Assembly (NCBI GenBank): GCA_016203135.1
Contig: JACQNI010000006.1
Span: 1-43,937, forward strand
DNA from: Candidatus Woesearchaeota archaeon
GTDB lineage: Archaea > Nanobdellota > Nanobdellia > SCGC-AAA011-G17 > JACPNG01
DNA length: 43,937 nucleotides
Reading direction: 5' to 3'
Positions 743 to 24,770 of this stretch are shown here, in pieces; position 1 is the stretch's first letter; each line of letters begins with the position of its first letter. The translations under genes and the position numbers were made by a program. The notes under the pieces are model-generated. The model was not told the origin of the DNA and searched no databases. It worked only from the letters and a program-made list of their open reading frames with translations.

Positions 743-1819
743 ATGGTTCTGATGAATATATTCTTAACAGACTTTGTAAAGGGATTGATACCATTTCAGA
801 ATATCTATCTGAGGGCATTAATAATATTTTTTTTAATCACCTTGTTTCTTTATATTGTGATATTTTTAATAGATAGAGTAGTAAAAACCTTATTTTTAAA
901 AACTAAAACAACACTTGACGATGAGTTGTTTTCTGCTGTGGAAAAGCCATTTTATGCAATAGCATTTCTTGCTGGTTTATGGTTTGGAATTGATGTACTT
1001 GGAATAAATCAATCTATTTTGATGCACATAAACAGATTATTAATGGCATTTATTTTATTTGTATTGTTTTTTCCTGTGCATAGGATTACAAACATACTGA
1101 TAAACTATTGGTTTGGAAAATATACAAGAAGGATAAGGATAACAGTAGATGAAAAATTACTTCCAGTTTTAAATAGAGCTGTTAAGATAATTTATTTTAT
1201 AATCTTTATCTTGTTTATACTAAGGCTTTATCAAGTTGATGTAGGCCCTTTACTTGCAAGCCTGGGAATTGCTGGATTGGCTGTTGGATTGGCTTTACAA
1301 GATACTTTAAAAAATATATTTTCTGGGGCTTCTATTATCTCTGATAAGTCTATCGGGCTTGGAGACAGAATAAAATTGGAGTCAGGAGAGTCTGGAATTG
1401 TTAGGGATATAGGATTAAGAACAACAAGAATAGAAACTCCTGACAAAGAAATAATTATAGTTCCAAATTCGCAGCTTGCAAACAATCGAGTTTTAAATTA
1501 TTCACTGCCAAATCTTAGGACAAGGGTTAATGTTGATGTTGATGTTGGATATGGGGTTGATATTGACAAGGTTAAGAAATTATTGCTGGATTGTGTTAAG
1601 GTTTTGGATAAAGATGCTGTTGATAATAGCAAGGATATAGGAATTTATTTCATGAAGATGGGGGAATTTTCATTGACTTTTAGGCTTGTTGTTCCAATAA
1701 ATGATGTTCATCATAAGTTTTCAATTGAATCAAAGCTGAAGGAAGAAATATATAAAAGACTTAGGAAATCCAAGATAGAAATCCCTTTTCCTACGAGAAC
1801 TATTTACGTTAAAAAGTAG
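743..1819 (+). CDS. mscS: Small-conductance mechanosensitive channel (MscS family)
   Basis: Several N-terminal TM helices, LLASLGIAGLAVGLALQDTLKNIFSG, IGLRTTRI, IVPNS and C-terminal IEIPFP. Confidence 0.95.
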   Translation: MVLMNIFLTDFVKGLIPFQNIYLRALIIFFLITLFLYIVIFLIDRVVKTLFLKTKTTLDDELFSAVEKPFYAIAFLAGLWFGIDVLGINQSILMHINRLLMAFILFVLFFPVHRITNILINYWFGKYTRRIRITVDEKLLPVLNRAVKIIYFIIFILFILRLYQVDVGPLLASLGIAGLAVGLALQDTLKNIFSGASIISDKSIGLGDRIKLESGESGIVRDIGLRTTRIETPDKEIIIVPNSQLANNRVLNYSLPNLRTRVNVDVDVGYGVDIDKVKKLLLDCVKVLDKDAVDNSKDIGIYFMKMGEFSLTFRLVVPINDVHHKFSIESKLKEEIYKRLRKSKIEIPFPTRTIYVKK

Positions 1820-22308: not shown

Positions 22309-22784
22309 CCAAAATAAACATCGGAAAATTTCTCTTCCTCTTCTTTACTCCAAGCTTCCTCCATTTTTGAAGCTATTTTTTTAACTTTAATTTTTATATC
22401 ATTAAAATTTTTAAAAACATCATTTATGAAGCCAACATCAAGATTAATATCTGGATCTATGTCTATTTTTAACCCTTTTCTATCTAACTGCATTAATTTT
22501 CTCATAACCTTTAATGCCTCTTGCTTTTCTTCATCTGTGAAAAACCTGTTTTCGTGGGTGCTTATGACTGATGATGAGGCTGGATGCAAAATACCATCTA
22601 AGATTCTTATAAAAAAACCTATCTTTTCATTTATTCTTCTTCTTATTGCTCGAATTAAGAATTTTTCATTTATGTCTTGAATACTGCTGATTTCAAATTC
22701 CTTGTCTAAGACATCAAAGTCTGGAAGCTTGTGTTTTTTACTTAATAGCTGATATTCCTTTTTAATATCTATGTCCTGTTTCAT
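22305..22784 (-). CDS. Hypothetical protein
   Basis: Start likely ATG 22784 (MKQDIDI); the longer ORF call runs into the element end. Stop overlaps the adk start. Confidence 0.75.
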   Translation of the reverse strand: MKQDIDIKKEYQLLSKKHKLPDFDVLDKEFEISSIQDINEKFLIRAIRRRINEKIGFFIRILDGILHPASSSVISTHENRFFTDEEKQEALKVMRKLMQLDRKGLKIDIDPDINLDVGFINDVFKNFNDIKIKVKKIASKMEEAWSKEEEEKFSDVYFG

Positions 22785-22820
22785 GAAATATATGGCTGGA
22801 ATTAACTTAAAAATCTTTTC

Positions 22821-22881
22821 TTTTATGAGGCTTTGCACATAAACTAAGTTCTGCACATAAATAAAAACCATTTGCAAATTA
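22821..22881 (+). repeat. Left end: 27-bp inverted repeat plus subterminal 9-mers
   Basis: ttttatgaggctttgcacataaactaa; 9-mers at 22834, 22852 and 22873. Confidence 0.85.
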
Positions 22882-22978
22882 AATTATTTTCTATATAAAT
22901 ATATAAAAATCAATAAAATTTTTGGGTTACTAAGGGGTGTAGATAAAAGATTAAATAACCTAAAAACATATACTAAAT

Positions 22979-24069
22979 ATGTATATTACAAAGACGATAA
23001 AGGCTTCTGTTATTGAGTTAACTAAGTCAAAAAAAGAGCTTCTTGATAATGATTATTTCAATTATCAATGGTGGATGATATTTGGAATAGATAACGGTCT
23101 ATTGAGTTGTTTTAAAGCTCAGAAAGGCTTTAAACAAGAAATAATCAAGTATAGAGAATATCCATTGCCTTTATGGTCTAAATTGATTAAAGATTGGTTT
23201 AGGATTAGAAATACCAAACTAACTAAAAACTGGATTAAAATACCTAATAGTAAGAAAAAAGGCATAGGTCTATGGCTTCCTTTGAAGTTTCATCAAGAAT
23301 TGCCTAAAAAGTTTAAGTTAAAAGATTCTTTTTTAGTTAGGAAAAATAACAAATATTACATTCATTTCTATGTAGAAGTTGAATGTGGTGAACAATATAT
23401 TCCTAAGAATATAGTTGGAATAGATTTTGGAATTAAGAATCCAGTCACATTAGTAGATATAAATACAAAAGAAACTAGATTCTTAGGCAAAGAATTAAAA
23501 CAAGTAAAAGGAAAATATTATCATTTAAGAAAAAAGCTAGGTAATAGCAAAAATTTAAGGTTAATTAAGAAAATAAAAGATAAAGAGAAAAGAAAAGTTA
23601 ATTCTTTATTACATAGACTATCTAAAAATATAGTAAATGATGCATATAATAATAAATCTACTATTGTTTTAGGGAAATTAAAGGATCTAAAGAGAAATAA
23701 AGGAAGATATTTCAATAGGAAGTTATCTAGTTTTTCTTATTTAGATTAACAAGTTATATAGAGTATAAGGCAAAGTTAAAAGGGGTTCCTGTAATCAAAG
23801 TATCTGAAGTAAATACATCTAAAACTTGTAATGTCTGTGGCATTACTGGCAAGAGAACTAAGAATTGGTTTATTTGTGGGTGTGGTTATGAAGACAATGC
23901 AGATAGAAATGCAGCCTTTAATATAGGCAAACGGGGTCTTAGCTATATGCTAGGATCAGGGGTAAATGCTTTTGCCCAAAGTTCATCAATAGTGGTAGAC
24001 CCTTATCAACCCAAGTTGAATGAACAAGCGCATACCTTAAATAATGTGCAAGTTTGTAATTTGCATTAA
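22979..24069 (+). pseudogene. tnpB: Compact TnpB RNA-guided nuclease with a 1-nt frameshift at about 23741
   Basis: RuvC-I VGIDFG and LHRLSKNIV in the first frame. After tat tt aga tta, a second frame reads RLTSYIEYKAKLKGVPVIKVSEVNTSKTCNVCG...FICGCGYEDNADRNAAFNI to TAA at 24069. Confidence 0.9.
23960..24055 (+). ncRNA. Putative omegaRNA (reRNA) scaffold overlapping the tnpB 3' end
   Basis: Three consecutive stems: gggtaaa/tttgccc (23960-23977), gttcatcaa/ttgaatgaac (23981-24025), gcgcat/atgtgc (24028-24049), then AAGTT. The position is typical for TnpB guide scaffolds. Confidence 0.5.
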
Positions 24070-24102
24070 AAGGGATTAATTTATGTGCAAAGCTTCATAA
24101 AA
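24042..24102 (-). repeat. Right end: 27-bp inverted repeat plus subterminal 9-mers
   Basis: ttaatttatgtgcaaagcttcataaaa; 9-mers at 24042-24050, 24057-24065 and 24081-24089. Confidence 0.85.
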
Positions 24103-24770
24103 TGTTAATATATAAAAACTTGATTTTGATCGGAACCTCTCATATTTCAATAGAAAGCATAAAACAAGTAGAACAAGTTATTCTTGATAAAAATCCGGAT
24201 ATTGTAGCCCTAGAACTAGATAGATCAAGGCTCCAAAGTCTTTTTTCTAAGCATAAAAAGCCTTCAATTAAAGACATTAGGAAAATAGGTGTTAAAGGCT
24301 TTATTTTCTCATTGATTGGCCATTATGCAGAGAAAAAACTTGGTGAAATTGTAAATGTCAAGCCTGGCTCAGAAATGATTAAGGCAATTGAAACAGCTAA
24401 AAAAACAAATTCAAAAGTTGCTCTAATAGATCAAGACATAAGGGTTACTTTAAAAAAAATTTCAGATAGATTAACCTATAAGGAAAAACTCAGGTTTATC
24501 TCTGACTTATTTAAAGGAATTTTTATAAGGCAAAAAATAGAATTTGATTTGAAAAAAGTTCCAGAGAAAAAGATAATAGATAAGCTTACAAAAGAATTAC
24601 AGAAAAGATATCCAACATTATACGAAGTATTAATAAGTGAGAGAAATTTAATATTAGCAAAGAACTTGCATAGATTATTAAAAACAGAAAAAACAATCGT
24701 TGGAATTGTTGGCGCTGGTCATGAACAAGAAATAATTAATATCATCAAAGACTTAGATAAAAATGTTTGA
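24102..24770 (+). CDS. traB: TraB/GumN (PrgY) family protein
   Basis: IGTSHIS, PDIVALELD..R, PGSEM, LIDQDI, LISERN, GIVGAGH. Confidence 0.92.
   Translation: MLIYKNLILIGTSHISIESIKQVEQVILDKNPDIVALELDRSRLQSLFSKHKKPSIKDIRKIGVKGFIFSLIGHYAEKKLGEIVNVKPGSEMIKAIETAKKTNSKVALIDQDIRVTLKKISDRLTYKEKLRFISDLFKGIFIRQKIEFDLKKVPEKKIIDKLTKELQKRYPTLYEVLISERNLILAKNLHRLLKTEKTIVGIVGAGHEQEIINIIKDLDKNV

Follow-up and report, generated by a model that had tools for sequence, protein, structure and literature searches.

The window analysed here is a stretch of 43,937 nucleotides from a Candidatus Woesearchaeota archaeon (GenBank assembly GCA_016203135.1, contig JACQNI010000006.1, positions 1 to 43,937 of the forward strand), and its subject is a compact element at positions 22829-24094 that carries a tnpB gene between a leftward-reading gene and traB. 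A preliminary description of this locus had read it as a TnpB gene captured by a DDE-type transposon. The source genome, labelled G000, comprises 912,243 bp at 31% G+C in 92 contigs and is 93% complete. It was compared with 240 genomes of the same order, and in the following G and C numbers denote genomes and contigs, respectively.

As had been described, tnpB is the sole cargo, with no other sizeable gene between the repeat arms. Its promoter consists of an A-rich B recognition element (BRE; GATAAAAG) and a TATA box (ATTAAATA) at 22942-22957 on the plus strand, with the TATA box at 22950-22957, 29 nt before the ATG. The gene itself is split over two plus-strand frames: an N-terminal part of 256 aa at 22979-23749, which matches OrfB_IS605 (E 6.9e-8) and ends at a premature stop, and a C-terminal part at 23743-24072, which matches Cas12f1-like_TNB (E 7.2e-21), holds the RuvC-II/III motifs and the zinc finger, and lies in a frame open from 23731 to the stop codon at 24070-24072, 22 nt before the element end. 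The closest solved structures are TnpB/Cas12f chains. Across the two frames the motifs GIDFG, IEYKA and NADRNAA are present together with CNVCG...CGCG, which I take to be the D, E and D motifs of the RuvC-like domain and the zinc finger. The break is a frameshift at 23738-23746 that the preliminary description did not report: relative to intact homologues (...SFSYYKLT...), a single base is missing between ...SFSY and (K/R)LT...EYKA. Contigs built independently from four DNA sequencing runs of one study showed no insertion or deletion relative to the window at this site, so the frameshift is not peculiar to this assembly. Programmed frameshifting was considered as an explanation and is unlikely, as homologues are continuous and the site does not, on my own reading, form a canonical slippery heptamer.

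Homologues of this tnpB occur in 30 of the 240 genomes and fall into a close clade of 60-77% identity and a second clade of 40-46%, and in most of them the open frames are full-length over the whole range of 40-77%. In the homologues of G227, G147 and G087, the alignment position of the RuvC-II glutamate (IEYKA) is occupied by M or R, which may reflect a rearranged catalytic site as in Altae-Tran et al. A second tnpB in G000 (C26:1106-2242, minus strand; 378 aa) is intact, unrelated and located beside ribosomal-protein-like genes, and no end of the GGCTTTGCAC type was found near it at up to 3 mismatches.

Re-comparison of the arms at 22821-22847 and 24076-24102 gave the same 25/27 match that had been noted before; this value was not attained in 200 first-order Markov shuffles of 22700-24250, whose best score of 24 occurred in 3 shuffles. 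The true ends of the element emerged from a second copy in G000 that is split over two contig ends. C18:8869-9452 corresponds to window 22829-23417 at 88% identity and C6:10492-10809, on the minus strand, to window 23750-24094 at 90% identity, such that homology extends from 22829 to 24094. This makes the element GGCTTTGCAC...GTGCAAAGCT, with a length of 1,266 bp. Of the 27-bp repeat, only the inner 19 bp belong to it, as a left terminal inverted repeat at 22829-22847 on the plus strand (GGCTTTGCACATAAACTAA), an end that is shared by many genomes, and a right one at 24076-24094 on the minus strand (read inward, AGCTTTGCACATAAATTAA), while the outer 8 bp (TTTTATGA and TCATAAAA) are flanking sequence. 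Termini of TG (22826) and CA (24097), which had been proposed earlier, lie outside the points at which the second copy diverges and had to be given up. Among the listed copies the first base is usually G at left ends and A at right ends, the exceptions with G at the right end being G087, G147_C9, G057 and G043. A possible solo element end with 2 mismatches (GGCTTTGCACATTTA) was also seen at C47:151 in G000.

Inside each end lie three TGCA(C/A)AT(A/T)A sites, just as first described. Those of the left end are direct plus-strand repeats beginning at 22834, 22852 and 22873 (22834-22882), and their layout is common to the left ends of transposase-bearing relatives. The degenerate 9-mer has just 80 occurrences on both strands of the whole genome, and the repeated sites are putative binding sites of a transposase.

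The element is flanked by two different 9-mers, CTTTTATGA on the left (22820-22828) and TCATAAAAT on the right (24095-24103), the latter overlapping the traB start codon at 24102. The flanks of the other copy carry the same two 9-mers in exchanged positions: TCATAAAAT precedes its left end on C18 and CTTTTATGA follows its right end on C6 (AGCT|CTTTTATGA). The window element hence combines the left target-site duplication of one insertion with the right one of a different insertion. Among 18 end pairs of related copies, for which the G057 ends were assigned by flank motif and not by gene orientation, the flanking 9-mers matched at 9/9 in 11 pairs and at 8/9, 7/9 and 6/9 in one pair each, with examples such as GAGATATCC in G029 and TATCCACCT in G030. 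The remaining four pairs stood at 2/9 and comprise the two G000 copies, G043, and a pair on G147_C51 whose left end was offset by one base in the count and which by eye shows TATTCTACT on both sides. The duplication is thus one of 9 bp that varies in sequence, in place of the TA duplication suggested at first. The supposed ambiguity due to palindromic flanks likewise resolves into two duplications exchanged between two copies, which are near reverse complements of each other (8/9); this likeness is read as a shared target preference. A host palindrome as the target was considered and set aside in favour of swapped duplications, as the genome holds no family of TTTTATGA/TCATAAAA palindromes.

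Searching the comparison genomes for the ends revealed a large family. The 14-mer GCTTTGCACATAAA was found at ≤1 mismatch in 136 of the 240 genomes, while a reversed control pattern was found in only a handful. Paired ends bound miniature inverted-repeat transposable elements (MITEs) of 77 bp, 135 bp and 270-320 bp, tnpB-only elements of about 1.2-1.3 kb, and elements of 5-8.5 kb in G051, G057, G043 and G134. In the four long elements, the last gene before the right end encodes a protein of 328-402 aa with a DDE_Tnp_1 domain (PF01609; E 7e-17 to 5e-22), and its best plasmid matches, at about 27% identity, are annotated as IS5-family transposases. In the IS5-like element ISVa2 of pJM1, the terminal repeat is GGCTTTGTTGCTTAAATCG and the 9-bp duplication is CCTCTGAAC; IS903 also starts with GGCTTTG and duplicates 9 bp. 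I take the combination of GGCTTTG termini and a 9-bp duplication to mark the IS903-like group of IS5. The archaeal DDE_Tnp_1 transposase family is present in 57 of the 240 genomes, including several with tnpB elements (G029, G162, G058, G030, G087 and G026), and in the tnpB-bearing genomes inspected it resides on a different contig from the tnpB copies or at a great distance from them.

At 20 further tnpB loci, searched for the ends with ≤3 mismatches allowed, seven had both ends and three had one end, so that the same ends surround tnpB homologues of 40-77% identity; six of the seven loci with both ends showed a matching 9-bp duplication, and one (G234) a duplication at 7/9. The ends that contain tnpB in the window are therefore common to elements encoding a DDE_Tnp_1 transposase, and the core of the preliminary description, TnpB within a non-autonomous DDE-type element, holds. 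So does its separation from IS200/IS605 and IS607, given the terminal inverted repeats, the duplication and the ends shared with DDE-bearing elements. No Y1 transposase (PF01797) was matched in G000, at 93% completeness, and its sole resolvase (contig C31) has the catalytic domain at the N-terminus, unlike resolvases of the IS607 type. IS607-type ends with multiple subterminal sites were accordingly rejected, as the resolvase is of the wrong type and duplications are present. The further copies and autonomous partners that had been suggested as a check were found in part: both exist in related genomes, and G000 has the second copy described above but no match to the transposase family. In a wider contig collection at least 120 stretches matched GGCTTTGCACATAAA, most of them single, probably chance matches of bacterial origin, and several from Woesearchaeota, Pacearchaeota and Nanoarchaeota.

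Several other members and remnants of the family were observed along the way. Minimal MITEs of 77 bp, which consist mostly of two ends with TGCA sites, lie on G009:C28 (locus L014, 1478-1554), where the 9-bp duplication TTTGCCACA flanks the element, and on G128:C1 (locus L065, about 524-599). The elements at G057:C31:28347-34971 (L056, 6.6 kb) and G134:C12:2891-11358 (L058, 8.5 kb) carry cargo besides the transposase, namely an ORF (open reading frame) resembling cytosine-C5 methyltransferases (FCGxGG by eye) and large ATPase-like ORFs, which may make them transposons with restriction or defence genes. On G001:C36 (L010, about 842-1573, minus strand), a typical left end with three sites is followed, in place of tnpB, by an ORF beginning MGYLFIDVET..., similar by eye to a DEDD-type exonuclease motif; no opposite end was found in this locus. 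A weak transposase-like remnant of 26 residues with two stops (E 8e-5) lies at C51:26125-26202 beside an apparent tRNA 3' end.

The 3' part of the element coincides with a module resembling an ωRNA, the RNA partner of TnpB in OMEGA systems (for obligate mobile element-guided activity), at 23938-24094 on the plus strand. It was recognised by aligning the final 175 nt of 17 tnpB-bearing elements and 3 MITEs, 20 sequences in all, and by its covariation, with four helices predicted by RNAalifold. From 5' to 3', the module, all on the plus strand, includes stem 0 (23938-23954), stem A (23959-23977), stem B (23981-23986 with 24020-24025), which shows the strongest covariation, a conserved AAGCGC directly after stem B (24026-24031; AAGC(A/G)C across the alignment), and hairpin C with a TTGTA-type loop (24046-24066), present in 19 of the 20 sequences. 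A long-range helix (24028-24032 with 24084-24088) joins the conserved AAGC(A/G)C to TGTGC inside the terminal repeat. Paired cells amounted to 93.8% compared with 78.9% in shuffles, none of 500 shuffles being as high, and changes on both sides of a pair were seen in 63 cells compared with 20.7; when partners were slid by 1-3 columns, pairing fell to 24-51% of cells. The 270-320-bp MITEs keep this module without tnpB. Rfam gave no family match for 22700-24250, its only row being a snoRNA model at E 0.19 and 20 bits, far from its gathering score of 72, which was taken as chance. A structured region that overlaps the tnpB 3' end and reaches the transposon end is the layout of known ωRNAs, and the module probably acts as an RNA of this kind.

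When elements were oriented by their internal gene, the flanks of left ends proved informative at -23 to -10, where the consensus is TTTATAAAG-TTT(C/T), and those of right ends did not; a TATA-like A/T 8-mer with a T-run is present in 14 of 19 left flanks compared with 2 of 20 right flanks. On the opposite strand, this motif corresponds to an A-rich BRE and then a TATA box. At 14 of 34 sites, an ORF reading away from the element begins 44-61 nt from the left end; these 34 left ends include the G057 end assigned by flank motif and 15 without an internal gene, chosen from 64 for a GG(C/G)TTTGCA start, the others being left out. The distance in the window is 44 nt: the leftward gene starts with its ATG at 22784-22782 and its minus-strand promoter, AAAAGA plus TTTTTAAG at 22786-22819, has the element directly upstream. 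In G000, TATA 8-mers begin at -29 from the ATG in 77 of 814 ORF upstream regions, with an A-rich stretch before them, and this regularity implies mostly leaderless mRNAs. Motif and spacing together place the left end ~45 nt upstream of the start of a leaderless neighbour, at the upstream edge of its BRE, and this promoter-edge position holds for both G000 insertions. At the traB site the motif belongs to the host and occurs also in relatives that lack the element. Part of the pattern could come from selection against disrupted genes in compact genomes; the fixed register and the orientation bias of the insertions point to targeting. In the available portions of the literature searched, no archaeal insertion sequence was found described as targeting BRE/TATA sequences.

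Relatives also allowed the empty site to be reconstructed. The C18 flank, one TCATAAAAT and the right flank of the window combine into a site that is colinear with the sequence ...TATTTAAAGATTTC-N9..-ATG of 15 relatives, and all 15 lack both repeat clusters there, which was the outcome expected for an insertion upstream of traB. The two refutations proposed in the preliminary description accordingly fail: relatives with the empty site do not keep the clusters as host sequence, and tnpB homologues share the ends. The divergent neighbour of traB in 15 of 15 family relatives is, however, not the window's left-hand gene, as would follow from the earlier statement that deleting the element restores the traB intergenic region, but the orthologue of C18_8535-8846, after which come the next two genes of C18; none of the 15 has genes from the left side of the window beside traB. 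The left-flank gene of the window is present in 7 of 16 relatives, and the C6 genes, traB and the C18 gene are never beside it. The join in the window must consequently be a recombinant or an assembly chimera, that is, either a true inversion between two inverted copies or a chimera across a repeat with an identical middle. Contigs from the sequencing runs support both right-end junctions and the left junction of the window at similar depth, and among the contigs listed from those runs none spans the whole element. For annotation, the contig join at the element is not to be trusted. An empty site for the G029 copy was sought with its flank in three genomes of its genus, which gave only short matches at chance level.

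Taken together, the window most probably contains, at 22829-24094, a 1,266-bp non-autonomous transposon of the IS5 lineage that carries tnpB and an ωRNA-like module, is moved in trans and inserts upstream of promoters, and I hold this explanation with considerable confidence. Under it, the IS5-type transposase of larger relatives would move the element in trans by recognising termini of ~17 bp and perhaps the additional TGCA sites. Each insertion would duplicate 9 bp immediately upstream of a core promoter, to which the left end would lie adjacent. tnpB would be transcribed from its own canonical promoter, the scaffold of the ωRNA would run into the right terminal repeat, which would make its last helix, and the guide would consist of the flanking duplication and host DNA beyond the right end. 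Judging from the flanks, the candidate target-adjacent motif (TAM) is TTTY, the T-rich complement of the BRE, which lies just 5' of the duplication in the empty site. By analogy with IS605, TnpB with its ωRNA may cut unoccupied alleles and so promote copying of the element into them. The flanks of the window copy stem from two insertions, brought together by recombination between copies or by a chimeric contig join.

A number of observations weigh against this explanation. No transposase of the DDE_Tnp_1 family was found in the window element or anywhere in the G000 assembly (93% complete, 92 contigs), and mobilisation in G000 is therefore hypothetical. The best NCBIfam model for the transposases of the long elements, transpos_IS5_2, scores 115-126.5 bits against a cut-off of 140. 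Half of the 20 further tnpB loci had no such end at ≤3 mismatches, three of these 10 being distant homologues of ~30% identity. Several left ends of the tnpB type, for example in G029, G162 and G179, lack the second and third TGCA sites, which consequently cannot be required in all members. The G043 element has unmatched flanking 9-mers, GGCTTTAAG and, read inward, GTAATTAAG, which may represent another exchange between copies, and the transposase-bearing element of G057 has its promoter-like flank at the right, transposase-proximal end. For the long-range helix reaching into the terminal repeat, there is conservation without covariation. Among the sequencing runs searched, four DNA runs of one study contained the stretch and no RNA run did. 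Finally, tnpB is broken, and probably inactive, in the window copy.

Beyond this, the arrangement could be a co-adapted fusion of an IS5-type DDE transposon and an OMEGA system in DPANN-type archaea, with fixed promoter-edge targeting and orientation, the terminal repeat serving as a guide-proximal helix, and a TTTY TAM provided by the BRE complement. I put this forward as a tentative idea that is somewhat more likely to be wrong than right. In such a fusion, targeting may proceed by promoter sequence or by the bound complex of TATA-binding protein and transcription factor B (TBP/TFB). If true, the element would follow a safe-haven strategy like that of the Pol III-directed retroelements of eukaryotes, and its nuclease would recognise exactly the empty target sites of its own family.

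Among rival explanations, the one that survives best sees TnpB as a decaying passenger without function and the conserved 3' structure as serving transposition in the form of DNA, not RNA. The frameshift of the window copy and the M or R at the RuvC-II glutamate in three homologues are in its favour, covariation alone cannot tell the strand or chemistry of a structure, and the review PMC13565253, in the text available, argues that a nuclease is of little benefit to cut-and-paste DDE elements. Most homologues nevertheless keep full-length open frames over a wide range of identity, tnpB has a canonical promoter, and the structure, kept in MITEs, extends over the 3' end of tnpB like known ωRNAs, all of which makes the passenger explanation unlikely. 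It is more unlikely still that an ordinary tnpB element of the IS605/IS1341 or IS607 type landed by chance in a pre-existing MITE. MITEs of the same family without tnpB do exist, and the left end in the window is more like the left ends of transposase-type elements than those of its closest tnpB relatives, which suggests mosaicism. A chance landing is opposed by the tnpB frame, which extends into the right end, stops 22 nt short of the terminus and thus leaves no room for a separate right end of the IS605 type, and by the recurrence of the same arrangement in TnpBs that are just 40-46% identical. The covarying RNA module, moreover, closes in a helix with the terminal repeat and is retained in the 270-320-bp MITEs, and the genome is without a Y1 transposase or an IS607-type recombinase.

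The analogies drawn in the preliminary description itself, to an IS630/Tc1-mariner-like or a Tn7/Mu/IS21-like element with TG...CA ends, a TA duplication and site arrays, fared worse and are highly improbable. The TA dinucleotides do occur at the positions named, and repeated subterminal sites are present at both ends of the window copy; the second copy, though, diverges at 22829 and 24094, the duplications are 9 bp long, and the partner is an IS5-like DDE_Tnp_1 transposase associated with GGCTTTG ends. That the repeat clusters are merely host operators in the traB promoter region with tnpB between them by chance, as their location and repeated motif might suggest, is a negligible prospect, since both clusters are missing at the colinear site in all 15 traB-locus relatives and the same ends flank unrelated loci in 136 of the 240 genomes, with target duplications.

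As a rule, TnpB goes together with the scarless transposition of IS605 and IS607 elements. An association with DDE transposons is already in print, and the novelty first claimed for it was too strong: as far as the available text of Altae-Tran et al. (2023, PNAS; PMC10691335) goes, there are six DDE-associated TnpB branches (DDE-1 to DDE-6), all with inverted terminal repeats, in which at most 250 bp lie between the 3' end of tnpB and the end of the transposon, and the ends of some solo TnpBs are near-identical to those of transposase-bearing elements, suggesting mobilisation in trans. According to the accessible part of a 2026 review (PMC13565253), the DDE partners are ISL2, IS630 and IS1031, and the benefit of OMEGA to DDE elements is unclear. 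In the available portions of the literature searched, neither a GGCTTTG-ended TnpB lineage with 9-bp duplications in DPANN-type archaea, on which the supplements of PMC10691335 may bear, nor the use of a terminal repeat in an RNA scaffold was found; targeting of promoter edges may be a separate new property. Whether and how TnpB serves cut-and-paste DDE elements is a point discussed in the accessible part of PMC13565253, and the related genomes supply a compact natural set for it, consisting of transposase-bearing elements, elements with tnpB and ωRNA only, and MITEs with ωRNA only. With clear boundaries, an ωRNA apparently built onto the terminal repeat and a sharply defined target, the TAM and guide logic, trans-mobilisation and a role in homing become testable.

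Compared with known systems, the family shares with the DDE-associated TnpB branches, as described in the available text of PMC10691335, the inverted terminal repeats, a tnpB near the end and solo copies with the ends of transposase-bearing elements. It differs from the ISL2, IS630 and IS1031 partners named in the accessible part of PMC13565253 in its partner with GGCTTTG ends and a 9-bp duplication, and its hosts are small-genome archaea, the related records being from Woesearchaeota, Pacearchaeota or Nanoarchaeota. It resembles IS5 elements of the ISVa2 type in its DDE_Tnp_1 transposase, a terminal repeat starting with GGCTTTG and the 9-bp duplication. Bacterial IS5 differs in that the archaeal transposase stands at about 27% identity to the bacterial ones and below the NCBIfam cut-off, and the archaeal elements have extra subterminal sites, frequent cargo and insertions beside BRE/TATA promoters. 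As in IS200/IS605 (including solo tnpB of the IS1341 type) and IS607, an ωRNA-like module extends over the tnpB 3' end to the right end, and short derivatives keep the RNA module. IS200/IS605 and IS607 elements, however, have neither terminal inverted repeats nor a duplication, according to the available parts of PMC13565253 and PMC6188088, whereas the window element has both. Copies differ in the bases directly at the left end, with no fixed short TAM there, unlike in IS200/IS605, and the only resolvase of G000 is on another contig with its catalytic domain first, unlike in IS607. Tn7, Mu and IS21 differ in that the termini here are GGCTTTG...CAAAGCT and the repeated sites of the window copy are missing in several relatives. 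Further parallels are Fanzor in eukaryotic DDE transposons and Cas12k in Tn7-like CRISPR-associated transposons (CAST), where a TnpB-derived RNA-guided protein likewise lies inside a DDE-type transposon. Nothing here shows RNA-guided insertion, because the same target sites are used by relatives without tnpB. Fanzor belongs to eukaryotes or viruses, and Cas12k, which directs insertion, is nuclease-dead, whereas the TnpB of these archaeal elements keeps its nuclease motifs.

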